From Candidatus Bathyarchaeia archaeon (GTDB taxonomy: Archaea; Thermoproteota; Bathyarchaeia; Bathyarchaeales; Bathycorpusculaceae): a stretch of 16,293 nucleotides of DNA. A program made the translations under genes and the position numbers. Below, in pieces: positions 991 to 16,293 of this stretch. The stretch is taken from assembly GCA_037481775.1 (NCBI GenBank), contig JBBFKZ010000027.1:1-16293 (forward strand), read 5' to 3'. Positions within the stretch are counted from its first letter, which is position 1. Each line of letters starts with the position of its first letter. The notes under the pieces were generated by a model. It had not been told where the DNA came from. It did no database searches and saw only the letters and a program-made list of their open reading frames with translations.

Positions 991-1015
991 GCTACGCCTC
1001 GGTGGAAAACATGTC

Positions 1016-1951: not shown

Positions 1952-1956
1952 CCCTT

Positions 1957-1974
1957 GTATTACAATTGTAATAC
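1957..1974. promoter_or_regulatory. Perfect 18-bp palindrome GTATTACAATTGTAATAC, candidate RHH operator in a divergent promoter
   Basis: Self-complementary over 18 bp; lies 5 bp upstream of the RHH-fusion TTG start and just upstream of a TATA-like TTTTATG at ~1987. Confidence 0.75.
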
Positions 1975-2029
1975 GAATGGAAATGCTTTTATGATTTTCC
2001 TTTTTGCCCTTTAGAAAAAAGAGAGGAGA

Positions 2030-2536
2030 ATGATGAGCGAAAAAACAAGCGAAGCAGCAAAAGCCTCTGCAAGCTGGGTCATTGCTCGCATAGCCATTTT
2101 CTCCGCGCTAACAGTCATTGGTTCATTCATAAAGACCCCCAGCCCAATCCCCTCCGTTGCCTTCGACTCAAGCCCAGGATTCTTTGCAGCCTTATACTTT
2201 GGCGTGTTCGACGGCGCCTTAGTCTGCGGCATAGGTCACATCGCTACCTCAGTCATCAGCGGTTTCCCCTTAGGCGCTCTACATCTTCCCATTGCGCTGG
2301 GCATGGCGCTTTCAGGCGCAGCCATAGGCTTCGTAAACAAGCTAAACAAGAAATGGGGCTTCATCCCCGGTCTCATAGTTGGAGTAGCCATAAACACTGC
2401 TCTAGTGGTTTTAGCAGTGCCCGTCATAACGTGGGCTGGAGCAATCGCGTTCGCGCCTCTGCTGCTTTTAGGCGCATCCCTAAACGCCATCGTCGCTGCT
2501 ATCGTGTACGTGGCTTTGCGAGGTAAACTCCGTTGA
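2030..2536 (+). CDS. cblT: ECF transporter S component, CblT-like (alpha-ribazole uptake)
   Basis: Hydrophobic 168-aa multi-TM protein with IAIFSALTVIGSFIK..SVAFDSSPGFFAALYFG and GH..TS..SGFPL motifs; GAGGAG SD; coupled to a CblS-like gene. Confidence 0.7.
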   Translation: MMSEKTSEAAKASASWVIARIAIFSALTVIGSFIKTPSPIPSVAFDSSPGFFAALYFGVFDGALVCGIGHIATSVISGFPLGALHLPIALGMALSGAAIGFVNKLNKKWGFIPGLIVGVAINTALVVLAVPVITWAGAIAFAPLLLLGASLNAIVAAIVYVALRGKLR

Positions 2537-3297
2537 TTGGTTCCCCTGTTTTTACCTCCACAAACAGGGACCTCCTCATTTTTCAACTCGCCAACGGCGA
2601 CGCTCTAGTTGTTGGCTGCGACTCCTCAGGAGGCGTAGGCCCCAAACCTCTTGACAAAATCAAAGTAGACGGATACACTCTTGGAAAATTCATAGCCCGA
2701 GTAGCATTAATGGAAGTTCTCTCGGTTTCAGCAGCCCCTTTGTGCATAATTAATACGCTTAGTGTAGCGCCTGAACCGCTTGGCGCTGAAATTTTAAGGG
2801 GCGTACGTGCTGAGGCGAAAAGGGCAGGGTTGGATCCGCAGCTTGCAGTAACTGGTAGCACCGAGAAAAACTTCCAGGTTGAGCAGACAGGTATGGGTGT
2901 AACCGTGATAGGGCTAAGCCGAAAGGGCTTCTTGAAAATCGGCGCATCCCAGCCGGGGGACATAGTGGCTGCTGTAGGCGTTCCCTGCGTGGGAAACGAG
3001 GTTATCCCAGCGGAAAATATGCATATGATTGCTGATATAGAGGATCTTTTGAAGCTTCAGGCGCTGACATTTGTCCATGAGGTAATTCCTGTTGGGTCAA
3101 AGGGCATAGTGCATGAAATTAACGTTTTAGCTAAAGATTCAAAACTAACTGCCACGTTGGCAAACGAGGCAGCGGTTGATTTGAAGAAATCTGCGGGTCC
3201 CGCCACCGTTATTCTTGCCAGCCTTCCTATGTCTAAACTTGAAGAGCTTAAGGCCGCCGTTACCAAGCCTGTCAACGTTGTTGGCCAATTATTCTAA
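2533..3297 (+). CDS. cblS: CblS-like alpha-ribazole kinase (AIR synthase/PurM-related ATP-binding fold)
   Basis: VVGCDSSGGVGPKPLD, ARVALMEV, TGSTEKNF..QTGMGVTVIG, EVIPVGSKGI and DLKKSAGPAT motifs; 4-bp overlap with the S component. Confidence 0.7.
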   Translation: MIGSPVFTSTNRDLLIFQLANGDALVVGCDSSGGVGPKPLDKIKVDGYTLGKFIARVALMEVLSVSAAPLCIINTLSVAPEPLGAEILRGVRAEAKRAGLDPQLAVTGSTEKNFQVEQTGMGVTVIGLSRKGFLKIGASQPGDIVAAVGVPCVGNEVIPAENMHMIADIEDLLKLQALTFVHEVIPVGSKGIVHEINVLAKDSKLTATLANEAAVDLKKSAGPATVILASLPMSKLEELKAAVTKPVNVVGQLF

Positions 3298-3346
3298 AGC
3301 AGACTTGCCCTGCACTCTGCGCTTAAGCGCCTAACGCTTGTGTATG

Positions 3347-3904
3347 CTAGATTAGTAAGTGCTCTAATAGTATTTTGACGCCGATCGCTATTAGAACGAT
3401 GCCGCCTACAATGTGTATTTTGCTTTCAAAAGCATTTCCAAGTTTGCTGCCGAAACAAAAACCTCCTATGGATAAGAGGAAAGTAACTACGCCAATTGTA
3501 ATCACCGGAACCGCTATGGCTACTCGCAGCAAAGAAAAACTTAACCCAACCGCTAACGCGTCAATGCTTGTTGCAACTGAAAGCATCAATAGGGTAGCCG
3601 CCGTTAAAGGGCTTTCTTTCTTCTTCTCCTGGTCAGCTTTTGCAGAACGAATCATTTTCCCGCCGACAAATGCTAAAAGCCCAAACGCTAGCCAATGATC
3701 AAAGTTGCTGATTAATTCTATTAGGCTTAAGCCGGCCAGCCAGCCCAGTACCGGCATGAAAGTTTGGAATGCGCCAAAAGCGCTTGCCATAGCTAATCCA
3801 GTGATGGTCCTGCGATTTCGGGTTACCATGCCACGCGCAATTGACACTGCGAACGCGTCAGTTGCAAGGCCAAGCGCAATCAGGAGAATAGTTGCCGCGT
3901 CCAC
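3347..3904 (-). CDS. mntP: Manganese efflux pump MntP family
   Basis: LGLATDAFAVS, FGAFQTFMP, DHWLAFGLL and ATSIDALAVG motifs. Confidence 0.92.
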   Translation of the reverse strand: MDAATILLIALGLATDAFAVSIARGMVTRNRRTITGLAMASAFGAFQTFMPVLGWLAGLSLIELISNFDHWLAFGLLAFVGGKMIRSAKADQEKKKESPLTAATLLMLSVATSIDALAVGLSFSLLRVAIAVPVITIGVVTFLLSIGGFCFGSKLGNAFESKIHIVGGIVLIAIGVKILLEHLLI

Positions 3905-4041
3905 TGTGCATCTGTCCTGTTTCCGTGGCTTATAGGCAATAAGCCCTTACATCTTAAAGGCTTCGGTTTCCTTCCGCAAGTTTCTTCAAAAAGGTAAATA
4001 TCTCGAAAAGGGCAATGGACATTTCACTGGAGAAATCCTGT

Positions 4042-4797
4042 TTGAAGCTGAGCCTATCTAACGGCATTTTTGCGCATCTACCCTTAGCCGAGAACATCGC
4101 CGCTGTCCGAAGACTTGGTTTCGAAAACTTGGAATTTAACATGAAAAGCGTGGAGAAAGAAGACGATGACTCCGTTTACGTTGCGAAAAAACTTATCGAA
4201 GCGCATGGGCTGAAGTGTTTAACTGTTCATGCGGCATGCCTACACGTTAAAGAGCAAAATGAAATACCTACGGCCGTTTACTATGGAAAAGTTTCAGCCG
4301 ATTTTGCGCATCAGCTCTCAGCGCCCGTGCTTGTCATACACTCAAACATCAACAGGCGATTGCCTGCAGACCTGCGGCAAAAGTTTTTGGCAGAAATCTT
4401 CAGCGAGCTGAGGCCTTACGCAGAGAAGCTGCGTCTTAAGCTGGCGTTGGAGAACCTTTCATACGCGTCAACAGGCTTCGGCAAGAACATTGATGAACTA
4501 GACGAAATTATCAGCGCAATAGGTGGCGACGCGTTAGGTGTAACCTTGGATTTTTGTCATGCCGAGGCTACAGGGCAGACAACGCGTCTGCTCAACAAAT
4601 ATCATGAACGCCTCTGCAACATTCACATTAGTAACCGCGCGCACACACCCTTCAAAGAAGAAACGCAGAACTTGAGAGCCTTTCTCAGCAAACTCAAAGA
4701 TTACGGCTATGACGGACCGCTAACCATAGAGTTAAACAGGAAATGCACAATTGAAGAAATTCAGAAAACAAAGGAAATAATTCAAAAGCTAATTTAA
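4042..4797 (+). CDS. Sugar phosphate isomerase/epimerase (xylose isomerase-like TIM barrel, AP endonuclease 2 family)
   Basis: LGFENLEF, LALENL, VTLDFCH, NIHISN and GYDGPLTIE metal-ligand pattern. Likely start TTG 4042 after GGAGA; the ORF is open from 4015. Confidence 0.82.
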   Translation: MKLSLSNGIFAHLPLAENIAAVRRLGFENLEFNMKSVEKEDDDSVYVAKKLIEAHGLKCLTVHAACLHVKEQNEIPTAVYYGKVSADFAHQLSAPVLVIHSNINRRLPADLRQKFLAEIFSELRPYAEKLRLKLALENLSYASTGFGKNIDELDEIISAIGGDALGVTLDFCHAEATGQTTRLLNKYHERLCNIHISNRAHTPFKEETQNLRAFLSKLKDYGYDGPLTIELNRKCTIEEIQKTKEIIQKLI

Positions 4798-4824
4798 TAA
4801 ACGCGCAGCTACTACTGTTATGGC

Positions 4825-5031
4825 ATGCGGCTTGCAACAATAGTCGTAGGCGAAATCATTCTGCTCGTAGCATCAGTGCTCGTTTTCCGAAGTCTTTGGA
4901 CACTGCTTGACCAGTACTTTGGGCAAACAAATCTTTGGCCAATGCTAATAATAGGACTGATTTTAACCGTCGTGGCGCTGATAATCGTGAATTACGAAGT
5001 CAAATGCGAACTAAACCAGAAGAAAAATTAA
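4825..5031 (+). CDS. Small two-TM membrane protein, hypothetical
   Basis: 68 aa, ATG start, two hydrophobic segments around FRSLWTLLDQY. Confidence 0.65.
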   Translation: MRLATIVVGEIILLVASVLVFRSLWTLLDQYFGQTNLWPMLIIGLILTVVALIIVNYEVKCELNQKKN

Positions 5032-5160
5032 CGTTCCACAGCAATAGCCTATAAAGCGGCCCAAACAAACACGATCAGAAAGAATACTCTTGTAACTTAC
5101 TGTACGCTTATTACAGCGACCTACTTTAAGCCAATTATTCCGACTGAAAAAGGATCAAAG

Positions 5161-5245
5161 CGCGGGGTGTGGGATTTGAACCCACGCGGCCTTTTGGGCC
5201 ACAGACTTAGCAGGCCTGCCCCCTACCAGGCTAGGGCAACCCCGC
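5161..5245 (-). tRNA. tRNA-Ser (GCT)
   Basis: Minus strand has a GCGGGGT/ACCCCGC acceptor, G discriminator, anticodon arm CAGGC-CTGCTAA-GTCTG, long variable arm GGCC-CAAAA-GGCC and T-arm GTGGGTTCAAATCCCAC. No intron and no encoded CCA. Confidence 0.95.
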
Positions 5246-5513
5246 CATGTTTTTCTCTAACGCTTTGCCATGTCCTTTTAGTTTTGCACATTTTTATTTA
5301 TTGCCTTTCTATTTACGTTTTCCAAGGCATAACTTGGTAAGTATGCCGCACATAGGCCGACTTTAAAGTGCCCTTCATATTTGGCTGCTATTAGCGATTC
5401 ATTGCAGAAACCTATAGAGGGGCTATCAGCGGCAACAGCAACCAGCACTGAAAGCAGTATACAACAACTAGAAGGTGGTTCTTTAACGAAAGCAGCGCGC
5501 AGTTTTCAAGTAA

Positions 5514-6542
5514 TTAATCTCTATTTGGCTCGATGATTATCTTCAAAGATTCTCCTGCTTCAGCCATCAGCCGGAAGCCTTCAGCCGCTTGCTTAATGTC
5601 GAGCCTATGTGTTATCATCTCCTTGATATTCAGCCTTTTCTGAGATAGAACTGACAAAGCCTCTTCGAGATCCCGCGGTGCAGCGCCGTAACTGGTTTTC
5701 AATGTAACCTCGTTTCGCCAAAACGCAGTTATGGGCACAGGAAGCATTACCGTTGGATCAGGCACCGCAAAGAACAGGATTGTTCCCCCTTTGTCTACGC
5801 ACTCTAAAGCCGTCAAAGCCGCCTGCGCTGCGCCTGTGCACACTATCACTTGATCGGCTAGTCGCCCGTCATTCAGTTCCTTCAGCTGCTGCGGCACATT
5901 GTCCCGTGCATTTATTGTGTGATGTGCACCGAATTTTGCTGAAAGTCTCAAACGATTCGGATTTATGTCCGTTGCAACTATCCTGTGAACGCCGGCAAGT
6001 TTCGCCAGCTGCACATGCAGCAACCCTGCAACCCCGCTGCCCACAATTAGCAACGTATCGTCTTTTTGAATTGCTGCAAGCCTTTGCCCTCGAATCGTGC
6101 ATGCCACTGGTTCAATGAAGGTTCCCTCTTCATAGGTCATATCCGCTGGAAGCCTGTAAACACCATGTTCAACGTTTATCCATGGAACACGAATGTACTG
6201 CGCAAAGCCGCCTGGAAAATAATTTGTTGTATGTAAAGTCTCGCAAGCCGTATGATGCCCCTTCATGCAGTAACGACACTGGCCGCAGGGCACGTGATGA
6301 GATACAAAAACGCGTTCGCCAACATGATACCTTGTTACCTTGGCGCCTACTTTTGCAATTACGCCTGTTGCTTCGTGACCTAAAACTCTCGGCGCCTTTG
6401 GGACTCTATACCACTCTGTTACATCGCTTCCGCATATGCCGCAAGCCATTACCTTAATGAGCATTTCATTCTCTGAGATTTCGGGAATAGGCATCTCCTG
6501 GATTCTTACATCTCTATTGTTGTAGTAAACAGCGGCAAGCAT
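5514..6542 (-). CDS. Zinc-dependent medium-chain dehydrogenase (sorbitol/threonine dehydrogenase-like)
   Basis: CGICGSD, LGHE, structural Zn site CGQCRYC...C, and Rossmann motif GSGVAG. Confidence 0.92.
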   Translation of the reverse strand: MLAAVYYNNRDVRIQEMPIPEISENEMLIKVMACGICGSDVTEWYRVPKAPRVLGHEATGVIAKVGAKVTRYHVGERVFVSHHVPCGQCRYCMKGHHTACETLHTTNYFPGGFAQYIRVPWINVEHGVYRLPADMTYEEGTFIEPVACTIRGQRLAAIQKDDTLLIVGSGVAGLLHVQLAKLAGVHRIVATDINPNRLRLSAKFGAHHTINARDNVPQQLKELNDGRLADQVIVCTGAAQAALTALECVDKGGTILFFAVPDPTVMLPVPITAFWRNEVTLKTSYGAAPRDLEEALSVLSQKRLNIKEMITHRLDIKQAAEGFRLMAEAGESLKIIIEPNRD

Positions 6543-6564
6543 GAGTTCACCAAAAAGGAAGCGG

Positions 6565-7359
6565 CTATTTGCCCGCTTTCACTTGCTCATATAAGTCGTT
6601 GGCTTCGCTGGCCGTGTAATTCTCATGAATTATCGCGCGAATGGCCCGAATTGCCGCTACAGGATGCTCTGACTGCCAAATATTTCGTCCAAGATTAACG
6701 CCTATGGCGCCTTTCTGCATGCCATCATAGACAAAGTCGAAAACTTCCCGTTGAGTTTCGGTTTTCGGTCCACCTGCTATTACCACAGGAACAGGACAGC
6801 CGTCAACAACCTTGTCAAAGCCCTCTTCGCAGTAGTACGTTTTCACCACTCTGGCGCCTAGCTCCGCTGCTATACGGCAGCATAATGCCAAATAACGTGC
6901 GGTACGCTTCTCAAGCTCCCTGCCCACGGCGGTAACAGCCATAACGGGTATGCCATAATTCTCGCATACATCCACGAGCTTTGCCAAGTTCGTCAAAGTC
7001 TGATGCTCATACTTGCTGCCTACAAAGATTGACATGGAAACGGCGCTTGCGTTTAAACGTATAATTTCCTCTATCGAAGTCGTTATACCCTCATTTGCCA
7101 AATCTTCGCCAACCATGCTGGTTCCGCCTGAAACCCGCAGTATAATGGGCTTATTAATCGCTGGATCCACGCAGTTTCTAAGCACGCCCCGCGTCAGCAT
7201 CACTGCATCTGCATAAGGTAGTAGCGGCTTTATGGTTTCACCTGGCTTCTCCAGCTTGCTCGTAGGTCCCTGGAAATATCCATGGTCTATTGGCAGAAAG
7301 AGTGCCTTGCCATCTGGTTGGATTAGGCGTGAAAGCCTATTTTTCATTCCCCAATCCAT
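6565..7359 (-). CDS. lsrF: LsrF-like class I aldolase/thiolase (DhnA/FbaB family)
   Basis: MDWGMKNRLSR N-terminus, DHGYFQGPT, AAELGARVVKTYY (Schiff-base Lys), PVVIAGGPK and GRNIWQ. Confidence 0.85.
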   Translation of the reverse strand: MDWGMKNRLSRLIQPDGKALFLPIDHGYFQGPTSKLEKPGETIKPLLPYADAVMLTRGVLRNCVDPAINKPIILRVSGGTSMVGEDLANEGITTSIEEIIRLNASAVSMSIFVGSKYEHQTLTNLAKLVDVCENYGIPVMAVTAVGRELEKRTARYLALCCRIAAELGARVVKTYYCEEGFDKVVDGCPVPVVIAGGPKTETQREVFDFVYDGMQKGAIGVNLGRNIWQSEHPVAAIRAIRAIIHENYTASEANDLYEQVKAGK

Positions 7360-7362
7360 AGC

Positions 7363-7596
7363 CTATTTCTCCTCTGGATTCTTGGGTTTAAGAATTAAAT
7401 AACCTTTCTCTATAAGCCAATGGTGAAACTGCCAAGTTGTGTATCTGCATGCGGTGCTGCAGGTCTTCCTAACGCGTTCGTATTCTTCTGGTTTGTCTGC
7501 CAAGCGGTTTAACTCCATCTGCACAGGACATTTCACGTCGTTGCAGAATTCTCTGCGCTTGTACTCTATGAAGCCTTCAAGAGACATAGCCATCAA
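7363..7596 (-). CDS. Small Cys/His-containing protein (possible metal binder), first gene of the lsrF operon
   Basis: C-x4-C, C-x3-C and FHHW pattern; ends 3 bp before the lsrF start. Confidence 0.65.
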   Translation of the reverse strand: MMAMSLEGFIEYKRREFCNDVKCPVQMELNRLADKPEEYERVRKTCSTACRYTTWQFHHWLIEKGYLILKPKNPEEK

Positions 7597-7770
7597 CAGC
7601 TAATCCTCACGCAGCGCTAAATAAATATTAAGTGCTTTCAAGGCGCAGGCATCTTTAGCGTTTGCACAAGCCTTTACCGCAGAGCGATTTACACTAATGG
7701 CTGCTTGAAGGACCCTCTAACACTGCTGATTAAAGCCGTTTCTTGGAAGCATAAAATGGCGCTGTTTATT

Positions 7771-7782
7771 TGGTAGCCCGGG
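7771..7782 (-). other. Putative att site: tRNA 3'-end fragment CCCGGGCTACCA (tRNA-Gln-like)
   Basis: Minus strand reads CCCGGGCTACCA, matching the ...GGGCT-A-CCA end of archaeal tRNA-Gln; 33 bp beyond the integrase stop. Confidence 0.55.
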
Positions 7783-7815
7783 AGACCCCACCTTCTAGGG
7801 TTACATTTATACTTT

Positions 7816-9171
7816 TTATTGTTTTGTTGCTGCATGTGTTTCTCCTCGGATTTCTTTTAGTAGCTCTTGTTTTAGGGCTATGCTGAGCTGGTGTAGTTGG
7901 CGTTCTTCTAGTTGTTCGCGGCTGATAACAGTTGCGTTCGGGCGAGCTAAGGCTTCTTTGGTTAAGATTTCTTCGGGGTTTAATCCCCAGGCGCGGATGA
8001 TTTCTTTGAGCGCGGCGATTTTGCTGACCCGCGTCTTTGGTCTGATGCTTAGGGCTGCTGCCGAGTAAATGCCTCTGAGGTATTCTATGCCTTTCATCTG
8101 GATGTCATGGTAGGTGCTTATGGTGTGACCCATCATGTATTCAATGTAGTCTGTAGGCATGCCGAGCGCGGCGAGTTGGGTTCGGAAGAATTTGCGTATG
8201 CTGTGGACGCGGAGGTCGTAGAGTCTGCCTAGGGATTTTTGTGGGATTAAGCCTGCTTTTTGGTAGAGCTCGTGGACTAGGCTGTGTACGGCTTGGGTTG
8301 TTAGGGGCACTGGCCTGCGTAGTTGCATGTTTCTTAGGAGTGGGGTTTCGTCATGGATGTTTTCTGGTGGGATTTTGTCGGTGCCTTGGCGTCTGGCTTG
8401 CAGATACAGCCTAAGGTAATCAGCTGCTTCTTGACCGATGAAAGTGTCGTAGTCGTGGTATTTGCCTTTGGTGATTTCTGCTTCAACGTGGACGTGGATG
8501 GGCACTATGCCTTTCTCGAGGTCGCGTTTGACATGGCGGTATCGGAGCTTTACAAGCGTGCCTGTGCGGAAACCGCCTAAGGCGAGCATGCTAATTATGG
8601 TTTTGGTGCGTATGTCTGCCATGTCGATTATGGTTGCGAGTTCTTCAGGTGTGGGTGCGCGGTCTTTGTAGACGCTACGTTTAGGCAGGCTGTAGGCGAG
8701 TTCGAGTTTTAAGCCGTTGCATCTGAAGAGCGCTTTGACGCCTTTTATGTGGTTGCTGACGGTGCCTGGCGCTAGATCTTCGGCTTGGAGTTCGCCTACG
8801 AAGTCGTCAAGTAGTCGGTTGTATTTGGCTATGGCTTTGGGGTTGGCGTCTCCGTCTATGTCGGTGCAGTTTCTGATGAGTTGGTCGGGTTGGGTGTTGA
8901 GCCATTTGCAGAAGCGGTAAACACCGTAGAGGTATTGATAGAGAGTTCCTGAGCTTGCGGTTCTATGTCGCAGGAGGTGTTTGGCGAGTTGTAGGGTTGA
9001 CTCGTTGCTGAAGGCGAAGGGTACTAGTGCGGGCATTTTCCAGCTTAGGCTGTTGATTATGTATTGTTGGAGTTTTTCTTCGGCTGCTGATTGCGGTTCT
9101 GGAAGCTGGAGTGCTATTGGGATTTTGAGTTTTCGTCCGAGGGGGCTGTGGGTTATGGTCACTGCCTGCAA
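7816..9171 (-). CDS. Tyrosine recombinase / integrase, intact
   Basis: Catalytic set GFRTG (R), ITKGK (K), HSIR (HxxR), YMMGH (H), STYH (Y); N-terminal SAM-like core-binding region. Confidence 0.93.
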   Translation of the reverse strand: MQAVTITHSPLGRKLKIPIALQLPEPQSAAEEKLQQYIINSLSWKMPALVPFAFSNESTLQLAKHLLRHRTASSGTLYQYLYGVYRFCKWLNTQPDQLIRNCTDIDGDANPKAIAKYNRLLDDFVGELQAEDLAPGTVSNHIKGVKALFRCNGLKLELAYSLPKRSVYKDRAPTPEELATIIDMADIRTKTIISMLALGGFRTGTLVKLRYRHVKRDLEKGIVPIHVHVEAEITKGKYHDYDTFIGQEAADYLRLYLQARRQGTDKIPPENIHDETPLLRNMQLRRPVPLTTQAVHSLVHELYQKAGLIPQKSLGRLYDLRVHSIRKFFRTQLAALGMPTDYIEYMMGHTISTYHDIQMKGIEYLRGIYSAAALSIRPKTRVSKIAALKEIIRAWGLNPEEILTKEALARPNATVISREQLEERQLHQLSIALKQELLKEIRGETHAATKQ

Positions 9172-9539
9172 TGCGTTTGCTCCTGGCTGGTGTTTGGTTG
9201 AGTTTTTCGCTTCTTTGGCTGAAGCGCATACTCGCCTCTAACTATGGTGTCTGGGAAATTTAAATGCCCGTTTGAAGTTTTTTGTAATGGTAGCTCATGG
9301 AGTTCGAGGATGCAGCTTTTGAGGATGATTAAGCCGCTGCCTGAGCCGCTGGGGATTTGAGCGTCAGGGATTGTCCTGTCGTGTTCGATGAGCATTATTT
9401 CGTCGGTTTGTTTGGTAAGCCAGCCTATTGTCTCGCGTTCTACGGCTTCCTCTATGGGCTGCTGGATGTTCTTGTAGAGAACGTGATCCTTGTAGCGCAC
9501 GTAAACGGCAGAACCCAAAGAAAAAGCAGGAGAGGACAT
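9159..9539 (-). CDS. Hypothetical protein (small beta-rich domain), coupled to the integrase
   Basis: VYVRYKDHVLY..ERETIGWL..MLIEHD..GLIILKSCILE; overlaps the integrase start by 13 bp. Confidence 0.65.
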   Translation of the reverse strand: MSSPAFSLGSAVYVRYKDHVLYKNIQQPIEEAVERETIGWLTKQTDEIMLIEHDRTIPDAQIPSGSGSGLIILKSCILELHELPLQKTSNGHLNFPDTIVRGEYALQPKKRKTQPNTSQEQTHCRQ

Positions 9540-9552
9540 TGGGCTTCACGCT

Positions 9553-9795
9553 TTATTTGAAGAAGGCTTCGTCTCGTATGTTTTCGCTGACGCGGATGAA
9601 TCTGCGTTTTTTACAGAAAGACAGTATGCGGGTTAGTTCTGGGTCGTCTGCGCGTTCAAACTCTCTCCTGAAGCCCAACTTGCCCGTGGAGACGCGGACT
9701 TCAATTTTTCCGTCGCAGTCCAGAATCTGGTAGAAGCCCAATTTCTCCCCAGCATACTCTTCCAAGACTTCCCATTCTTCGACGAGATTAACCAA
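9553..9795 (-). CDS. Hypothetical protein of the element
   Basis: Likely TTG start at 9795 after an AGGTGA SD (ORF open from 9861); co-oriented and tightly packed with downstream genes. Confidence 0.6.
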   Translation of the reverse strand: MVNLVEEWEVLEEYAGEKLGFYQILDCDGKIEVRVSTGKLGFRREFERADDPELTRILSFCKKRRFIRVSENIRDEAFFK

Positions 9796-9907
9796 TTTGT
9801 TTTCACCTTGAAGGTCTTGCAGGCTGAGAATAAAAACTATCCATCGTCGCAAAGACATCATGTCTTTCAGGGTACCCGCAAAGACACGTATCTAAATTAG
9901 AGCTATT

Positions 9908-10285
9908 TTATGACAGCGCAGCAATGAGCAAGTATAGTTGCTCGTCTTTGGCTGTTTCAAGGAAGGCGTCCATGTTTTTCTCGTCGAGTTTGAGCGCTGC
10001 TTTTCCCCTAGGCGTCAACGCATACAGTTCAGAGTCCCAACCTGGTTGCGTAGGTCTAGTTCCTTTTTGATTTATCCAACGTTGCCGTTCGAGTGTTTGC
10101 ATGCGCCTGTAGACGGTTTTGCGCTCAGTGTGCCTAAAACCCTTGATTGTTCTAACCAAAAGCCACACGTCATAAGAGATCAATGCGCCTTTTTGATCGA
10201 GGATTTTGAGTATGACGCGGTTTAGGCGGGCTTCTCTGCCACTGAACACCTTAAGCCTCGTGCCCTTGCCTTTGTTCCGCGTCAA
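9908..10285 (-). CDS. Winged helix-turn-helix DNA-binding protein (PadR/MarR-like)
   Basis: VILKILD..ISYDVW..KTVYRRMQTLERQRWI..LYALTPRG pattern; GGAGG SD before the TTG start. Confidence 0.75.
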   Translation of the reverse strand: MTRNKGKGTRLKVFSGREARLNRVILKILDQKGALISYDVWLLVRTIKGFRHTERKTVYRRMQTLERQRWINQKGTRPTQPGWDSELYALTPRGKAALKLDEKNMDAFLETAKDEQLYLLIAALS

Positions 10286-10617
10286 AGTTCGCTTCCTCCA
10301 ACGCTGAAAGCAAAAACTAGGGATTTTTGGAACCGCCTTATCACATTAATGCCGCTGTTTTCTGGTGTTTTGTCTGCGGCAAAAAGTTTCTACAGGAGAA
10401 AAAATCACGGGAAAATTTTTCTGGAGACCCTTATGTTTACAAAATTGACACGTTTATGTAAAAAAGAGCAGGTGATTTGCAGTTTCTTGGCGTGTTTTGA
10501 CGGGGTGATTTCTTCGGGTAGAAACATTTTTCCCATAGGCATTTCTACGGGCGAAAACCTAAGGGCGCAAGTTTTGCGGGGGCGTTTTTTCTCAAAAGAT
10601 TAGATTCAGATGGTCAA

Positions 10618-10854
10618 TTATTCGATATGTTTGTTTCTTATGAGGGTTATGTTTATGATTTCTTGCTCTGGTGTTTCTCTGGCTGCGAAGTCTATGCTAA
10701 AATTCTTGTGCATGTGCGGTTCGATTTTTTCGTTAAGCCTCGTTGGGAAGTCTATGGAATAACGTTTGTAACGGTACTCCTGAGTTCTCTTGTAACGCTT
10801 CTTCATCCAACGGACTTGAAACTTAACCAACTCTACTAATCTCCAAAGTAGCAT
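10618..10854 (-). CDS. Small basic protein, possibly AbrB/SpoVT-like DNA-binding
   Basis: Lys/Arg-rich; the YKRYSIDFPTRLNEKI beta-turn-helix pattern resembles AbrB-type folds. Start uncertain. Confidence 0.5.
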   Translation of the reverse strand: MLLWRLVELVKFQVRWMKKRYKRTQEYRYKRYSIDFPTRLNEKIEPHMHKNFSIDFAARETPEQEIINITLIRNKHIE

Positions 10855-10968
10855 TTTCGAGGAGGTGGTTCTTTCCCAAGCCTGAGTTCAATGTTCTTAT
10901 TCTTGGACTTTGAGTAGGAGTTGAACCAGTGTTAAAGGTCAAGGTGTTGGCTGTGAATTGCCATTTTC

Positions 10969-11253
10969 TCATGTAACGTGCTTAGGTGTTTTCTTGCTTC
11001 TTATTCGATTTATGAGGCGCAATGCTCCAACAGCAGCAATAGCTATGAAAGCAGCTAATCCTATCCATTGAATTGCCCAAAGTATTTGATCTAACAAAGG
11101 TTCTGGTTTAGGGATTGGCATGGGGGTTGGTTCTTGCGATGTTTGTTCAGGGAAGAGAATGTAACTCATTCCTACAAGCAGAAAAGCTAGCGCTACAGCA
11201 AGGACTGCCGCTGCCACCATTGTCATTTTTTGTCCAATCAAGGTTTCACGCAC
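10969..11253 (-). CDS. Small two-TM membrane protein with a Pro-rich loop
   Basis: Two hydrophobic helices flanking PTPMPIPKPEP and a basic C-tail; preceded by an operator copy and TTAAATA. Start uncertain. Confidence 0.6.
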   Translation of the reverse strand: MRETLIGQKMTMVAAAVLAVALAFLLVGMSYILFPEQTSQEPTPMPIPKPEPLLDQILWAIQWIGLAAFIAIAAVGALRLINRIRSKKTPKHVT

Positions 11254-11287
11254 TATCCGCTATTCTTACGTTCGAGGTCTGTTATTT

Positions 11288-11328
11288 AATACTATATTTC
11301 TGTACAGGGTGTACTAAATATTTGTACA
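11288..11328 (-). promoter_or_regulatory. Tandem operator, divergent copy facing 10969..11253
   Basis: Minus strand: TGTACAA-ATATT-TAGTACA-ccc-TGTACAG-AAATA-TAGTATT running into a TTAAATA box. Confidence 0.6.
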
Positions 11329-11404
11329 TCTTCTTTGAAGTACCTTTGAATAGAATAAGTTTTAATTGACGCCCCCCCCCATTTAATTAGATTAGGCGCT
11401 GGAT

Positions 11405-11827
11405 TTGAGTGACAGAGAATCCAAGGACATCCTTAAGGGAACAACGCTTGAAATCTACCGTTTATTATTAAAAACCAATAAACCGCTAGGAATTAGAGAG
11501 ATCCAAAGAGCCTTGAACTTGAGCAGCCCATCCCAAGCTCAATATCATCTTAATAAACTTGAGGAAGCTGGTCTGCTAAAAAGGGAAATGGGCAATTACG
11601 TAATAAACAAGGTTCTCTTGGAAAACTGCGTAAGAATCAGCCGATTCCTCATTCCAAGATACCTCTTTTACTCCATATTCGCCATCGCAATCTTACTAAT
11701 TGAGCTTATCCTTCTCAGACCAGCAGTTCTCACCCGCGAATATTTCTTCTTCACGGCTGCAACGTTAATATTTGTTTTAATCTTCTGCTATGAAACTGCA
11801 AAGGTTTGGCTTAAAGGGAGCCTATAG
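11405..11827 (+). CDS. Membrane-anchored winged-helix transcription regulator (N-terminal wHTH + two C-terminal TM helices)
   Basis: LEIYRLLL..PLGIREIQRALNLSSPSQAQYHLNKLEEAGLL (ArsR/LexA-like wHTH), then YLFYSIFAIAILLIELILL and YFFFTAATLIFVLIFCY. Confidence 0.82.
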   Translation: MSDRESKDILKGTTLEIYRLLLKTNKPLGIREIQRALNLSSPSQAQYHLNKLEEAGLLKREMGNYVINKVLLENCVRISRFLIPRYLFYSIFAIAILLIELILLRPAVLTREYFFFTAATLIFVLIFCYETAKVWLKGSL

Positions 11828-11875
11828 CAAACCACTTTTTCAGCAAAACTGTAAATTTCAAGCCAGCCAGTAATC

Positions 11876-11915
11876 TGTCCTAAACATTAGTACAGGTGTC
11901 CTAAAGTGTAGAGCT
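11876..11915 (+). promoter_or_regulatory. Tandem operator copy
   Basis: TGTCCTA-AACAT-TAGTACA-gg-TGTCCTA-AAGTG-TAGAGCT running into a TAAATA box. Confidence 0.75.
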
Positions 11916-11981
11916 AAATATTCGTATCTATTAAGATAGAGACGCAAGACAAATAGTCTTGACGGAGACGAGAAGCATGAA
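11876..11981 (+). repeat. Duplicated promoter/leader block, copy 1 (copy 2 at 15219..15324)
   Basis: 11917..11981 is identical to 15260..15324 (65 bp, offset 3343); the upstream operator part is near-identical. Confidence 0.92.
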
Positions 11982-12828
11982 GCTTAAAGCCACGGCAATT
12001 GGTGCTCTCTTGCTTCTTAGCTTACTTGTTATCTCAACAGTGCAATCTATTGGGGTAGGTACTGTTAGCGCATACCATGGCGCTGGGATCTTCTGCCCAA
12101 ACAACTATATACCAGATCAATGGCCTTGGGACACTCCAGATGAGGTATCATTTTCGACTACATGCTGCTGGTACATTTATGCTTACCTCTTTTACCATTA
12201 CTACCCAGGACCAGTCGGTTATGCGTACGGTGATCCTTTTGACAACGATCCCATTGTCACGCCCAATACATACATGGACTATCTTGATTATTTGGAAGAC
12301 AATTCCGACGCGGTAACGGTTTTTTCAAAAGGGCATTGTACTCCTTGGGGGTATGGCTACCTATACCGCCGCCTACTTTGCACCATTGATGGCACGTACG
12401 CTCGAGATTCTATAGAGATTTATCCGCATACTGATCAGTTTAAATGCCGTTTTAATTTTATTTGGCATTGTGGTACCACCAATAGTTATCCTTATTGGCC
12501 GCCTTTCCCACCTGATGGACCCCCCTCGATGCCATTGGCATTTACCCACAATTTGGGTATGACTGAATATGGCTATAGCGGTTCGTGCGTCTTTGCCGGA
12601 TGGGACTATGCCTCGCCTCAGTTCTTTAATGTCATTCCAGATCACTATCCTTGGCAATGGGGACAATTAGCAGTCGGAGTCTTCTATTATATGCACTACA
12701 ATTACTGGAGTCTTGGCTATACTCTCAATTATCTATCAAACTTGATTTACGGTGTCAACTTTAACCAAAGCCCACTTTATAACGATTTGATGGTTTTGGG
12801 CAACATGGGTATGACTTTGAATTACTAA
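11977..12828 (+). CDS. Secreted Tyr/Trp-rich protein, putative His-Cys (clan CD, caspase/gingipain-like) peptidase; paralog 1
   Basis: Signal peptide MKLKATAIGALLLLSLL; motifs VTVFSKGH, FNFIWHCGT, FAGWDYASPQF and VLGN. ATG 11977 follows GGAG; alternative TTG at 11959. Confidence 0.6.
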   Translation: MKLKATAIGALLLLSLLVISTVQSIGVGTVSAYHGAGIFCPNNYIPDQWPWDTPDEVSFSTTCCWYIYAYLFYHYYPGPVGYAYGDPFDNDPIVTPNTYMDYLDYLEDNSDAVTVFSKGHCTPWGYGYLYRRLLCTIDGTYARDSIEIYPHTDQFKCRFNFIWHCGTTNSYPYWPPFPPDGPPSMPLAFTHNLGMTEYGYSGSCVFAGWDYASPQFFNVIPDHYPWQWGQLAVGVFYYMHYNYWSLGYTLNYLSNLIYGVNFNQSPLYNDLMVLGNMGMTLNY

Positions 12829-12848
12829 AAAGGAGTGAATAACAAGAA

Positions 12849-14012
12849 ATGAAGCAGGTAGAAAAATTGGTTTGCGCGGTCTTTCTTATTGCAATCTTCA
12901 CACAGCTTGGAATCATTTCTACTGTGCAGTCAGCTTTTACGGAATCTGAGGAAAAAGCAGTAGCCTTCATAGAAAATGTGCTGCCAATCGACAGCTCACA
13001 ATATAATATTACACTTAGAAATTACGGTGTGCCAGAACTGCCAGACATAGGTTACTACAAGCAAAGTAATGTCAAACAAGAGATTCTGACATATTCATTG
13101 GTGTCAAAAAACAGCACACTCGATGTGATTTGCACCATCAGCAATAATGTTTTGACCATCTGCAATATGTATGCCGTAAAGGGATCGGTTATTAGCGATC
13201 GGCAATACAGTAATCTATTGGATGCCGTTAAAGGTTTTCTTGAGAAATACCAAGCCTACTCTAAAATGGATTCAACAGAAATGATAAATATGCTATCAAC
13301 TGTTGATCCTACTAAAAACGCAACTATAACATCAGGCACCCTCAAGCTTACTGTAACCCACCAAGACTTATCTGGCACATGGTTTGGTGACACTGTTGAC
13401 TTTCGTTGGGTGCAAACTTTCAACGGCTGTGACTACCTGGCAGTAGATCTTGTCTTTCGCGACGGTGTCTTCTCAAACCTTATCGACCACCGTCAGCTGT
13501 ATTCAATAGGCAACACCGCGGTGAACATTTCTAAAGAGCAAGCCGTGAAAATCGCGATGGAATACATAAAGAACTACTCATACAAAATAGCAGAGGATGT
13601 TTGGATAAGCGATTTTAACGTCACTGAGGATCGAACGGTTGCAAACTTGGTTCCAACTGTAAGAGAGTCCAATGTTTTATATCCCTACTGGAGCGTTACA
13701 CTCTACCTTAACCAGACGTACCCTGGCAGCGTCACCTCCCTTCTGCTAGGAATCTGGGCTGACTCAGGAGAAGTATTCTTCTGCCACTATCAAGCATATG
13801 GCGGTAGTGACTTAATATCAGACAGAAATTCAGGCTACATAGCATCAGACGGCAACTCAGGCTCCGAACCACCCACAACATCACCCTCGCCGTCATCCCA
13901 AGAGACCAATGGGACATCGATAGACCTCAGCATGGTAGCCATAATAGCGGTTGCAACAATAGCAATTGCAGTAACAACAGTCACATTGATAGTCAAAAAA
14001 AGAAGCAAGTAG
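12849..14012 (+). CDS. Cell-surface protein: signal peptide, PepSY-like domain, S/T/P linker, C-terminal TM anchor
   Basis: ISKEQAVKIAMEYIK...YPYWSVTL...GIWADSGEV resembles PepSY; PPTTSPSPSS linker, TM helix, KKRSK tail; AGGAG SD. Confidence 0.7.
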   Translation: MKQVEKLVCAVFLIAIFTQLGIISTVQSAFTESEEKAVAFIENVLPIDSSQYNITLRNYGVPELPDIGYYKQSNVKQEILTYSLVSKNSTLDVICTISNNVLTICNMYAVKGSVISDRQYSNLLDAVKGFLEKYQAYSKMDSTEMINMLSTVDPTKNATITSGTLKLTVTHQDLSGTWFGDTVDFRWVQTFNGCDYLAVDLVFRDGVFSNLIDHRQLYSIGNTAVNISKEQAVKIAMEYIKNYSYKIAEDVWISDFNVTEDRTVANLVPTVRESNVLYPYWSVTLYLNQTYPGSVTSLLLGIWADSGEVFFCHYQAYGGSDLISDRNSGYIASDGNSGSEPPTTSPSPSSQETNGTSIDLSMVAIIAVATIAIAVTTVTLIVKKRSK

Positions 14013-14027
14013 ACCAATCACTTCCAT

Positions 14028-14040
14028 CCTTTTTTATTTT
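14028..14040 (+). terminator. Oligo-T archaeal terminator-like tract
   Basis: CTTTTTTTATTTT 15 bp after the stop of 12849..14012. Confidence 0.45.
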
Positions 14041-14114
14041 ACAGGTTCTATTCAAAGTAGAAATCGAATTTTGCACTGCATACCTTGTAAACACCAAAGC
14101 GATTGAAAGGGAAG

Positions 14115-14154
14115 TGTCCTAGTGTTTAGTACAGGTGTCCTAAAGTGTAGAAAT
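14115..14154 (+). promoter_or_regulatory. Tandem operator copy
   Basis: TGTCCTA-GTGTT-TAGTACA-gg-TGTCCTA-AAGTG-TAGAAAT upstream of a non-paralogous gene. Confidence 0.75.
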
Positions 14155-14185
14155 AAGTAATTCTTGTTTGGTAAGATTAGTAGAA

Positions 14186-15148
14186 ATGGGAGGTGAAATA
14201 ACGGTTAGTGGGAAAAGTGCTTACTGCTTGGCTTCTGTACTCCTTAGCTTAACGATGCTTTGCTCAATGATGCTTACGGTAGCAGCCCAGACGAATAACC
14301 AGATGTCTGCTATTGGATCATGGCGGCCTCCAAAGAATTTTGTTGATCCGGTTACCTTGAAAATTCAAGAATTCAGATCGCAAGGGTTAAATGATGAAGA
14401 AATAACGGCAAAGCTTGCGGAGCTAGGGATGGGCTGGTACCCGGAGACTGGTGCAACGTGGATGGGAAGAGTGTTGACTCCTGAAGAACTTGCTGAGATG
14501 CCAATTAGAGCGCCAGTTAAAGCTCCCTTAGACGAAAATGCAGTTCTATCGACCGGCAGAGCCTCGTGTATGCGGACTAATTATGCTTCCTGGACTGGTG
14601 TTGCCTCCGAAGTAGTCTCTGGTTCTATGAGTGTCAGTTCAGGACAAACACGGTACCACTATTTGTGCGTGCAGTTGGGAAACTTGGATAGCGGAACGAA
14701 CTGGGTAGAAACAGTGCTCACGCACAATTACGGTGAAACCTACAAGTGGTATACTTACGACTCGGATGAGGGTGGTGGTATGGTATATTACATGGATAAA
14801 AACACGCCGATAACAGTAGCTGATACTTACGTTATTATGTTGGATGGCACGCAAGACGGTGGTGGTTGGCATTATGATGTTTGGATAAACTATCAATGGG
14901 TCAGGCGTGGACACTTGTCAAATCTTTGGGTTCAAGCAGGTTTCCAGAAAGAAGTTTATAGTGACAGCGGACAATTCACGAATGATGCTTCGCATGCGGT
15001 ATTCTACCGAAACTGGTTGCACAATGATCAAGGATGGCCTTACTGGACAAGTGCTGTGAGTACGTGGTGGTACACAACTGCGCCAGTGCGGGAAACTCAC
15101 TCAACGGGTGCTGTTAGCTACCGCTGGGAGACATGGGTGCAGAACTAG
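14186..15148 (+). CDS. Secreted beta-rich protein, possible neprosin/glutamic-peptidase-like with N-terminal pro-region
   Basis: Signal-like N-terminus, ~90-aa pro-like region, then an aromatic beta-rich domain with TNWVETVL and AGFQKEVY. Start uncertain (TTG 14168 or ATG 14186). Confidence 0.5.
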   Translation: MGGEITVSGKSAYCLASVLLSLTMLCSMMLTVAAQTNNQMSAIGSWRPPKNFVDPVTLKIQEFRSQGLNDEEITAKLAELGMGWYPETGATWMGRVLTPEELAEMPIRAPVKAPLDENAVLSTGRASCMRTNYASWTGVASEVVSGSMSVSSGQTRYHYLCVQLGNLDSGTNWVETVLTHNYGETYKWYTYDSDEGGGMVYYMDKNTPITVADTYVIMLDGTQDGGGWHYDVWINYQWVRRGHLSNLWVQAGFQKEVYSDSGQFTNDASHAVFYRNWLHNDQGWPYWTSAVSTWWYTTAPVRETHSTGAVSYRWETWVQN

Positions 15149-15218
15149 CAACGCGAAAGTTGCTTATCTTCATTCCAGACGGCCTCTTGGCTTCAAGTGG
15201 CAAATTTAAACGTTCAAC

Positions 15219-15324
15219 TGTCCTAGTGTTTAGTACACTTGTCCTAAAGTGTAGAAATTAATATTCGTATCTATTAAGATAGAGACGCAAGACAAATAGT
15301 CTTGACGGAGACGAGAAGCATGAA
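15219..15324 (+). repeat. Duplicated promoter/leader block, copy 2, including the tandem operator 15219..15258
   Basis: TGTCCTA-GTGTT-TAGTACA-ct-TGTCCTA-AAGTG-TAGAAAT, then 65 bp identical to 11917..11981. Confidence 0.92.
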
Positions 15325-16225
15325 ACCAAAAACCATAACGGTTGGTGCTCTACTGCTTCTAAGCCTACTATTTTTATCGGCGCCACAGCTATTCGGAGTG
15401 AAAATAGCTAAAGCAGCCAATGCTGGCGTCATCTACGGTCCCAACTATCATATAGAATACCTTGATCTTCCCGGGGAAGAACAGCTCACCAGAGATGTCT
15501 GTACGTACATGATGAACATGTTTGTATCTTATGGATACAATTACGGCTGGCTATACAAATGTGTTGACAGTGCGGCAACAAGATCGGCGTACGGTAGTAA
15601 CGCCTACTATGCTGAAACGCACTACAGCGCTGCAACAGTATTCACTAAAGGACACGCCTCAGAGTATAAATGCAATCCGAATGGACCAAAACATCACTAT
15701 TTAATGGACACTAACGGCTTGCACGTGGAAGATGATTATATATGGCCTAACACGCCGTATGGTCGACATCGATTTGTTTGCACATGGCATTGCGGCACAA
15801 CAATGGATTACCCTGGCACAATTTGTCCATACTGCGGTGGTCGGACATCGCTTCCTTACGCTTGGACTCACAGCAACACTATGAACCTCGAAGCCTATAC
15901 ATCATCGACTGGTAATTACGTCTACATAGGACATGAAGGGTACTCGCCACAATTTCTAAATCCAACTGGCTGGGGGAGCTACAATCACGCTCATTACGTC
16001 TACTACCTCTACTTGTACCTTCTACAGTATCATATGAACGTGCGCGACGCTGCGAGCTGGGCAGCATATTACACTTTCGGAAACTATTATTTGCCAGCAA
16101 CCCAGTTGTATACGCTGCATTGGGTTGACCCACCAGACCCACCTCCACCAAACCCGCCATTTCCAGGTTTTTGGAGCAGGATGCACATCTTCGGCAACGG
16201 AAACTTGGGATTACCAGGGTATTAA
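15320..16225 (+). CDS. Secreted Tyr-rich protein, putative His-Cys (clan CD-like) peptidase; paralog 2
   Basis: Signal peptide; ATVFTKGH, FVCTWHCGT, SLPYAWTH, YIGHEGYSPQF and IFGN motifs shared with 11977..12828. Confidence 0.6.
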   Translation: MKPKTITVGALLLLSLLFLSAPQLFGVKIAKAANAGVIYGPNYHIEYLDLPGEEQLTRDVCTYMMNMFVSYGYNYGWLYKCVDSAATRSAYGSNAYYAETHYSAATVFTKGHASEYKCNPNGPKHHYLMDTNGLHVEDDYIWPNTPYGRHRFVCTWHCGTTMDYPGTICPYCGGRTSLPYAWTHSNTMNLEAYTSSTGNYVYIGHEGYSPQFLNPTGWGSYNHAHYVYYLYLYLLQYHMNVRDAASWAAYYTFGNYYLPATQLYTLHWVDPPDPPPPNPPFPGFWSRMHIFGNGNLGLPGY

Positions 16226-16240
16226 AGGAGCGAATAACAA

Positions 16241-16293
16241 ATGAGAAAACTTGTAACAAAAGTTCGCGGGCTTTTGATTCTTGCCGCAATTCT
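16241..16293 (+). CDS. 5' end of a signal-peptide-bearing gene, positional counterpart of 12849..14012
   Basis: AAAGGAGCGAATAACAA-ATG mirrors AAAGGAGTGAATAACAAGAA-ATG; reads MRKLVTKVRGLLILAAI to the window edge. Confidence 0.65.
   Translation, partial: MRKLVTKVRGLLILAAI

Follow-up and report, generated by a model that had tools for sequence, protein, structure and literature searches.

Gene pairs for a putative secreted caspase-fold cysteine peptidase and a membrane-anchored protein with three PepSY-like modules in Bathyarchaeia

The logic of pairing an enzyme with a PepSY-type pro-domain is already known. The passages of PMC13556211 that bear on it describe an operon for a secreted hydrolase and a membrane protein in which the three PepSY domains of YpeB 'embrace' the SleB catalytic domain, propose that YpeB is a chaperone-inhibitor 'akin to pro-domains in protease zymogens', and cite the FTP-PepSY pro-domains of M4 and M36 peptidases as a parallel. 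The present analysis concerns a 16,293-nucleotide stretch of DNA from a Candidatus Bathyarchaeia archaeon (forward strand of contig JBBFKZ010000027.1, assembly GCA_037481775.1), termed here the window, which carries two copies of a gene pair: a first gene, A, for a secreted putative cysteine peptidase and a second gene, B, for a membrane-anchored surface protein (A1 and B1 in the complete copy, A2 and a presumed B2 in the copy cut by the window end). An earlier note on this DNA had taken the pairs for a diversifying system of effector and cognate inhibitor, or of protease and surface anchor, carried on a mobile island. The reading preferred here, to which a probability of roughly 0.55 is given, is that the pairs are two-gene operons for an extracytoplasmic protease, with B acting as the detached pro-domain of a caspase-fold A.

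A1 and A2 are paralogs with 35% identity over 239 amino acids (BLASTP, E 5e-18), and for this reason share more than the short motifs to which the earlier note had confined their likeness. The motifs themselves are present, among them SPQF (213-216) and a terminal GN (275-276), and codon arithmetic reproduced exactly the proposed His codons at 12334 (H120 of A1) and 15653 (H112 of A2) and Cys codons at 12469 (C165 of A1) and 15791 (C158 of A2), spaced by 45 and 46 amino acids respectively. A1 begins with a signal peptide at about residues 1-32, and the ATG start chosen for each paralog lies downstream of the point at which the mechanically called open reading frame begins (TTG 11959 for A1, TTG 15302 for A2). 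A close relative of A2, P0040 (301 aa), could be aligned with it. A direct repeat of 161 nt with 84% identity (11875-12035 and 15218-15378) spans the promoter, leader and signal-peptide codons of both A genes.

An AlphaFold2 model of A1, built from an alignment of 27 sequences, had a predicted local distance difference test score (pLDDT) of 89.7 and a predicted template-modelling score (pTM) of 0.84. Foldseek comparison of this model with the PDB returned 28 matches at E<=1e-3, and 32 of the 33 PDB matches listed were caspases-1/3/7/8/9, CED-3, MALT1, metacaspase-9 or legumain, the remaining one being the anti-sigma factor DdvA. In BFVD, an independent library of viral models, 7 of 8 matches at E<=1e-3 were named caspase, C14 or metacaspase; over both libraries the best E value was 1.5e-05 and the template-modelling score (TMq) ranged from 0.45 to 0.54 among the PDB and BFVD matches listed, reaching 0.54 in BFVD. 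Matches to caspases, paracaspase, metacaspase and legumain in two libraries thus agree with the clan CD-like fold that the earlier note had expected Foldseek to return, and A is predicted to adopt a caspase-hemoglobinase (clan CD-like) fold. The DSSP order of the A1 model is b1-a1-b2-a2-b3-[GH]-a3-b4-[HC]-b5-a-a-b6, with strand b3 (112-118) leading into G119-H120 and strand b4 (157-163) into H164-C165, both strands being hydrophobic. As modelled, the His precedes the Cys and each stands at the C-terminal end of a hydrophobic strand, again as had been proposed, and this is the placement of the caspase-hemoglobinase dyad.

Residue conservation across the A family was assessed in 219 domains aligned to a broad profile, with denominators that differ by position. 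Cys165 was found in 199 of 199 domains and is the sole Cys invariant across the family; His120 was present in 185/202, E56 in 187/193 and D144 in 193/202. His164 is clearly not essential since it is present in only 95/199. In eight of the 17 domains that depart at His120, a His stands one or two residues upstream (FDHG, FHVGD). Family domains typically read K-G-H and W-(H/T/A/S)-C, a minority having FDHG; Gly follows the His in 58/202 domains and Ala precedes the Cys in 27/199.

A near-length search with A1 retrieved 43 relatives, of which those named by their source were all 'hypothetical protein', and an exhaustive profile search retrieved 509 representatives at 50% clustering (E<=1e-3), 254 of them at 1e-10 and 61 at 1e-30. 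Long relatives carry PKD, PEGA, Flg_new_2, CARDB or dockerin domains downstream of A, companions that are typical of extracellular enzymes. Some weaker leads were set aside: among the PDB sequence and profile searches made for A, B and gene C (a neighbouring gene described below), matches to a haemagglutinin, a CHAT helix (E 1.1) and a prefoldin were at chance level, and a language-model cluster in which 85% of members are DUF6345 scored 0.94 against A1, an assignment that was not confirmed by hmmscan of A1 and A2 (E<=1) or of 30 long and 75 short relatives. DUF6345, itself uncharacterised, is reportedly mentioned in a paper on extracellular-vesicle proteomics.

The partner B1 begins with a hydrophobic leader and was modelled as three helix-plus-sheet modules (approximately 31-111, 123-212 and 229-316), each consisting of one or two helices on an antiparallel sheet. 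A disordered Ser/Thr/Pro-rich linker (319-359) leads from these to a membrane helix at the C-terminus (360-385), the last residues being KKRSK. The best Foldseek match in the PDB was the YpeB C-terminal domain (5boi, E 2.1e-06), and the four matches at E<=1e-3 were 5boi, chain A of vibriolysin MCP-02 (3nqy and 3nqz) and the uncharacterised 5coz; the next in order were an Aspergillus fungalysin entry (4k90_B) and YpmB 2gu3 and 9a5z, with probabilities of 0.91-0.98. A near-length search with B1 returned 309 relatives at E<=1e-3, and in an alignment of 38 B relatives the C-terminus of 29 runs from a Ser/Thr/Pro-rich linker through a hydrophobic helix to a basic KKRSK-like tail. No relevant named family was found for B, or for A, in Pfam, NCBIfam, PHROGs, PADLOC or PDB sequence and profile searches. 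P0338 and P0342 join the B module to NosD/parallel beta-helix domains, at the end of which stand PEFPSW and a hydrophobic, basic tail that we take to be PEF-CTERM-like. A NosD/beta-helix gene (3735-5048, minus strand) also adjoins the cassette in one of the related loci described below, L007.

Counting of cassettes in related genomes supported the earlier proposal that A and B function as a pair, one that is conserved. In eight loci (L001-L008) from one-genome-per-species Bathyarchaeia and Thermoproteota metagenome-assembled genomes (MAGs), B lies directly 3' of A on the same strand in 8/8, the B gene of L006 being cut by the contig end; L003 and L005 gave identical values and are for this reason counted as one lineage. 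Identity to the window across the eight loci was 84, 56, 52, 49, 52, 51, 53 and 45% for A and, in the same order, 78, 47, 55, 54, 55, 64, 57 and 49% for B. L001 and L002 each contain a second, divergent pair, with about 24-32% identity to the window for A and 28-30% for B. By these identity values A and B diverge in step and at ordinary rates, B no faster than A, and the paralog types are old (about 30% identity for A and B alike). In L001 a HerA-like (DUF87) ATPase gene and a gene for a 640-aa unknown protein lie between the two pairs (1833-5610, minus strand), and the second A-like gene of L002 (4516-5772, minus strand) carries an insertion of about 150 aa immediately after the Cys motif (WSCGTANEDQ...) that looks like a domain placed in a loop of the caspase fold.

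As had been noted previously, each A gene in the window is followed by a near-identical Shine-Dalgarno (SD) spacer and a signal-peptide gene. Both A stop codons lead through AAAGGAG(T/C)GAATAACAA to an ATG, the two spacers being AAAGGAGTGAATAACAAGAAATG and AAAGGAGCGAATAACAAATG, and the SD-like spacer between A1 and B1 implies their co-transcription. The gene that starts at 16241 has 17 codons within the window (MRKLVTKVRGLLILAAI) and is probably a B homolog by synteny, given that 10/10 A-type genes in the eight loci, the extra pairs of L001 and L002 included, precede a B-type gene.

The two domains are also found joined in single proteins. At least 45 proteins contain both, 40 recognised by a narrow A profile and 5 more by a broad one, and in the long fused proteins the B profile covers approximately residues 10-380 and the A domain approximately 380-700. 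B precedes A in 44/45, the exception being an anomalous 300-aa protein (P0218), and the two fused proteins named by organism are from Bathyarchaeota and Bathyarchaeia. Among 37 relatives of one fused protein, P0243, 30 have both domains, 1 has A only and 6 have B only, two of these six carrying a NosD/beta-helix domain in place of A. Of 15 B-A junctions inspected, 14 run from the B linker through one hydrophobic segment and a basic cluster to a further hydrophobic segment, whose end just before A is a small-x-small site (VKA, ANA, AKA and similar; examples are P0243, P0261 and P0295), whilst P0262 is a direct B-to-A fusion. Such a junction probably forms a membrane hairpin with both domains outside, and the small-x-small end of the second segment suggests an internal signal-peptidase site, so that cleavage of the fusion would possibly restore the two-protein state. 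These natural fusions are the strongest evidence that A and B form a unit. A complex prediction for A1 (31-283) with B1 (30-320) gave a score of 0.02 (mark 0.32), which speaks neither for nor against binding.

Both pairs and a third gene for a secreted protein, gene C, share a promoter element. Three copies of the 31-nt pattern TGTCCTA-N5-TAGKACA-N2-YGTCCTAAAG are present in the window (operator copies 1-3 in Table 1), where 0.00 would be expected. It forms part of two tandem palindromes 21 nt apart, the second of which is imperfect (GTCCTA-N5-TAGAGC) and abuts a TATA-like TAAATAT. The same architecture, with 0-4 mismatches, lies upstream of A in L001 (5899-5929), L004 (2394-2424), L007 and L008 (5901-5931), and the L003/L005 lineage has two TGTCCTA units 21 nt apart at about 5900-5930; shuffled controls gave 0.05 matches per run. 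The operator is also present upstream of the gene-C copies of L003/L005 and of an unannotated 418-aa open reading frame in L007, the two L007 copies lying at 2223-2253 and 5811-5841. This distribution points to a small regulon of secreted proteins kept across diverged Bathyarchaeia. The leader that follows the promoter is preserved nearly base for base between the two paralogs and across loci whose proteins are only some 50% identical, its sequence being kept in 7 aligned leaders. Its inverted repeat shows a compensatory change in 2/9 pairs only, so that the leader may serve as a site in the DNA and not as a hairpin in the RNA; with almost no covariation it is not claimed as an RNA element.

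A gene just upstream of operator copy 1 encodes a small protein that has an N-terminal winged helix-turn-helix (wHTH) domain and, as read from its sequence, two hydrophobic segments, with ArsR/Lrs14-like similarity below cut-offs in NCBIfam. Homologs with 59-68% identity adjoin the A-B pair in 5/8 loci, and this protein probably binds the operator and regulates the cassette. Upstream of it lies a gene for a small protein with two transmembrane segments (10969-11253, minus strand) that has weak, below cut-off similarity to Phage_holin_3_6; in L003/L005 and L007, tblastn places matches to it of 36-46% identity close to the cassette. The start of gene C is probably the ATG at 14186, because a TTG at 14168 is too near the TATA-like box. 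No match to gene C was found in Pfam, NCBIfam, PDB, PHROG or PADLOC; L003/L005 contain one to three homologs of 62% identity, which likewise have the operator in front of them. Leads from language-model comparison (YrpD, and Peptidase_A4 on 12% of one cluster) were weak and unconfirmed.

Table 1. Positions of the cassette genes, their control elements and neighbouring features in the window
Feature	Position	Strand	Basis or remark
Tyrosine recombinase, 450 aa	7816-9171	-	Pfam Phage_integrase 8.5e-12; PHROG integrase; XerA similarity below cut-off
Small membrane-embedded wHTH protein, candidate regulator	11405..11827	+	Pfam HTH_20 4e-08; LexA_DNA_bind, HTH_24, HTH_5
Operator copy 1, TGTCCTA-N5-TAGTACA-N2-TGTCCTAAAG-N2-TAGAGC	11876..11921	+	Before A1; then TATA-like TAAATAT
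Leader inverted repeat CAAGAC-AAATA-GTCTTG	11945..11961	+	Then GGAG (11964-11967); repeat with GGAG again at 15288-15310
A1, secreted putative cysteine peptidase, predicted caspase fold (clan CD-like), 283 aa	11977..12828	+	ATG start; AlphaFold2, Foldseek, conservation
Intercistronic spacer, SD-like GGAG	12829..12848	+	Repeat family; short A-to-B gap in all 8 loci
B1, membrane-anchored surface protein, 387 aa	12849..14012	+	AlphaFold2 pLDDT 81.1; Foldseek PDB; complete gene
Operator copy 2 and TATA-like box	14115..14160	+	Before gene C
Gene C, secreted 320-aa protein (probable start)	14186..15148	+	Operator copy 2; no family match
Operator copy 3 and TATA-like box	15219..15264	+	Before A2
A2, paralog of A1, 301 aa, proline-rich C-terminal insertion	15320..16225	+	ATG start; H112 in G-H, C158 in W-H-C
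Second SD spacer and 17 codons of signal-peptide gene, presumed B2	16226..16293	+	Gene from 16241; cut by window end

The closest relatives of the cassette proteins are all from Candidatus Bathyarchaeia or Thermoproteota MAGs. The left part of the window consists of archaeal housekeeping genes, including those for a GHMP-type kinase C-terminus, a cytidylyltransferase-like protein, an ECF S-component, MntP and a DeoC aldolase with a zinc alcohol dehydrogenase, together with a tRNA-Ser gene. The G+C content falls from 0.44-0.53 in sub-windows over 1-10000 to 0.40-0.46 over 10001-16000, the cassettes being the low-G+C part, and the wHTH gene has the tyrosine recombinase gene 2.2 kb upstream. In one of the eight loci (L004) the cassette has integrase fragments next to it, a tRNA-Ile gene is just upstream of A in L002, and the genes flanking the cassette are unrelated from locus to locus. 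These features argue for a variable region. The mobile island that had been suggested for the cassettes is unproven: the integrase, the low G+C, the L004 fragments and the differing flanks favour it, but neither att-type repeats nor a tRNA target for the integrase were found in the window, the right border of the region lying beyond it. The recombinase gene shows a very strong strand composition bias, with plus-strand GC skew reaching +0.29 and AT skew -0.36. Two small unknown open reading frames and a PadR-like regulator gene follow the recombinase gene, the stretch next to it being 9159-10285 (minus strand), and a PadR gene is also located downstream of the cassette in L001. A scan for bacterial sigma-70 promoters and terminators scored below chance and is irrelevant as the host is an archaeon.

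Under the preferred reading of the pairs as operons for a protease and its pro-domain, A would be exported by a cleavable signal peptide and act as a cysteine peptidase through His120 and Cys165, and B would be exported and kept in the membrane by its C-terminal helix. The three PepSY-like modules of B would bind A as a pro-domain in trans, providing a folding aid, latency and/or a surface tether, whilst in related Bathyarchaeia a single gene encodes B, a probable membrane hairpin and A, and in many cases PKD, PEGA, Flg_new_2, CARDB or dockerin domains after them. Transcription of both pairs and of the gene for secreted protein C would start at a common promoter that bears two palindromic operators in tandem, probably bound by the neighbouring membrane-embedded wHTH protein. 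The likely role is extracellular protein breakdown or surface-protein processing, the former being favoured by the domain companions of A and by literature on extracellular cysteine peptidases of Bathyarchaeota.

A number of observations weigh against this reading. The TM-scores of A1 are modest, the His-Cys dyad was assigned by strand position in the model, and approximately 7/202 domains have no His near the expected position. The local motifs usual in clan CD are H-G and A-C, from which the G-H and (H/T/A/S)-C of A depart. Sequence comparison points the same way: nothing relevant was matched by A1 or A2 in Pfam and NCBIfam, 0/30 long (E<=0.001) and 0/75 short (E<=0.01) A relatives matched any peptidase family, no clan CD family (C11, C13, C14, C25, CHAT and others) was reached by a sequence model for A, and PDB sequence and profile searches with A gave nothing significant. 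For B1 the whole-chain TMq is only 0.25, a low value that is expected for a three-module chain with free angles between modules. None of the 38 B-family members, nor B1 itself, matched the Pfam PepSY (PF03413) or FTP models at E<=1, and 'PepSY-like' is for that reason a statement about fold and not about family. The earlier description of the complete partner as PepSY-like and membrane-anchored therefore holds for the fold and for the C-terminal helix but not for the Pfam family. Finally, 9/38 aligned B proteins stop before the linker and have no anchor, and on account of these and of the NosD/beta-helix fusions B may serve as a carrier of general use and not as an inhibitor specific to the protease.

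Taken further, this last point leads to a reading of B solely as a surface scaffold or stalk, a general N-terminal carrier that displays various enzymes and neither inhibits nor chaperones A. The long Ser/Thr/Pro linker with its membrane anchor, the joining of B to beta-helix domains in P0338 and P0342, the neighbouring beta-helix gene of L007 and the excess of B-family matches (309) over A1-type matches (43) in the same database all suit such a role. The best structural matches of B are, however, pro-domains and enzyme holders (YpeB and the M4/M36 propeptide entries), the fusions place B N-terminal to A as would be the case for a pro-domain, the anchor is missing from nine aligned B proteins, and the lower A count may reflect faster divergence combined with a word-based search, given the 509 A representatives retrieved exhaustively; a scaffold without further function is thus considered unlikely, at something like a one-in-five chance. 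A sortase-like activity, in which A would be a transpeptidase or processing enzyme that cuts surface proteins or anchors them anew and B its substrate or docking platform, is a good deal more doubtful. PorU, GPI8 and legumain ligases are transamidases of clan CD fold, and that fold is the one predicted for A, with legumain among its matches; the tripartite tail of B (linker, hydrophobic helix, basic cluster), the anchor-less B forms (9/38) and the PEF-CTERM-like tails of B-fused relatives could also be accommodated. Against it, no conserved sorting motif precedes the B anchor in the alignment of 38, A is placed after the B anchor in the fusions and not so as to act on it, and companions such as dockerin, PKD and CARDB are those that degradative exo-enzymes typically have.

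That A is a non-catalytic or non-peptidase caspase-fold domain, its Cys serving a disulfide, metal or cofactor in a structural envelope pair, has a low probability. Peptidase activity of A is a model-based prediction, the motifs differ from the clan CD consensus, some domains lack a nearby His and A1 is Cys-rich; yet a single invariant Cys directly after b4 and a His (92%) after b3 are arranged as a dyad would be. Least probable is the polymorphic pair of secreted effector and cognate immunity protein or inhibitor, diversifying on a mobile island, that the earlier note had put forward and that the data do not support. At least two divergent pairs do lie side by side in the window, L001 and L002, and an integrase gene and lower G+C occur nearby, with integrase fragments in L004 and variable flanks. 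The divergence of A (45-84% identity) is nevertheless paralleled by that of B (47-78%) across loci, with both at about 30% between the old paralog types, and no toxin, delivery or defence model in Pfam, NCBIfam or PADLOC was matched. Fusion in at least 45 proteins does not fit toxin-immunity logic, other secreted proteins belong to the regulon of the pairs, no att repeats were found in the window, and the B module is also joined to beta-helix domains.

Neither the A nor the B family has a Pfam or NCBIfam model, and the open-access literature yielded nothing linking Bathyarchaeia with caspase-like proteins or PepSY with caspase in archaea; papers that name both a PepSY domain and a cysteine peptidase appeared, judging by their titles, to be unrelated. 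What would be new in the preferred reading of A and B as protease and pro-domain is the enzyme class, the archaeal host, the split and fused series with its membrane hairpin, and the dedicated operator. Bathyarchaeia are among the most abundant sediment archaea. They are reportedly discussed, for example in PMC6752024, as degraders of detrital protein that use gingipain, clostripain and similar extracellular cysteine peptidases. A may be missed when the peptidases of sediment archaea are inventoried, because it is invisible to Pfam and NCBIfam, despite 509 representatives at 50% clustering and its occurrence in multi-domain exo-proteins as well. If the reading is correct, the PepSY chaperone-inhibitor logic known from metallopeptidases and SleB would also apply to clan CD enzymes, and in archaea. 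The genes would in addition form a regulon of their own, governed by a wHTH sensor embedded in the membrane. The split-versus-fused series would offer a clean system for asking if PepSY modules are general chaperone-inhibitors, and the operator with its membrane wHTH protein a compact archaeal regulon that is directly testable. It is put forward tentatively, at somewhat less than even odds, that Bathyarchaeia possess a large unrecognised family of extracellular caspase-fold peptidases whose triple PepSY-like pro-domain is either separate and membrane-anchored or joined by a hairpin that contains an internal signal-peptidase site, within a regulon run by a wHTH protein.

Of the systems compared, polymorphic toxin-immunity systems are characterised by delivery and toxin architecture, by hypervariable toxin tips and by fast-evolving immunity genes, a pattern that was not found for A and B. 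With clan CD peptidases (caspases C14, legumain C13, gingipain C25, clostripain C11, CHAT) A shares the predicted alpha/beta/alpha sandwich and strand order, with a His after one strand and a Cys after the next, 45-46 residues apart; it differs in its G-H and (H/T/A/S)-C motifs, in matching no family sequence model, in having no intrinsic pro-domain or inter-subunit linker, and in being secreted and archaeal. The propeptides of M4 (thermolysin/vibriolysin) and M36 (fungalysin) peptidases are represented among the top B1 matches by MCP-02 chain A and fungalysin chain B, and fused relatives place B N-terminal to the peptidase domain in the manner of a propeptide, whereas here the catalytic domain would have a caspase fold and be of cysteine type, the proposed pro-domain either has its own gene or is parted from A by a probable membrane hairpin, and B has three modules as against FTP plus PepSY. 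SleB-YpeB of Bacillus, as presented in the passages cited at the outset, resembles A-B in being a two-gene operon with the enzyme first and a membrane-anchored partner bearing three extracytoplasmic PepSY-type modules, and no PDB structure matched B1 better than the C-terminal domain of YpeB. It differs in that SleB is a lytic transglycosylase and A a caspase-fold putative cysteine peptidase, in that YpeB is anchored by an N-terminal transmembrane helix and B by a C-terminal helix after a signal peptide, and in that B has no detectable Pfam PepSY signature, its host is archaeal and A-B are known from sequence and models. SleB-YpeB and the M4 propeptide would by analogy be the closest counterparts of A-B, with B as a chaperone, inhibitor or anchor acting in trans.

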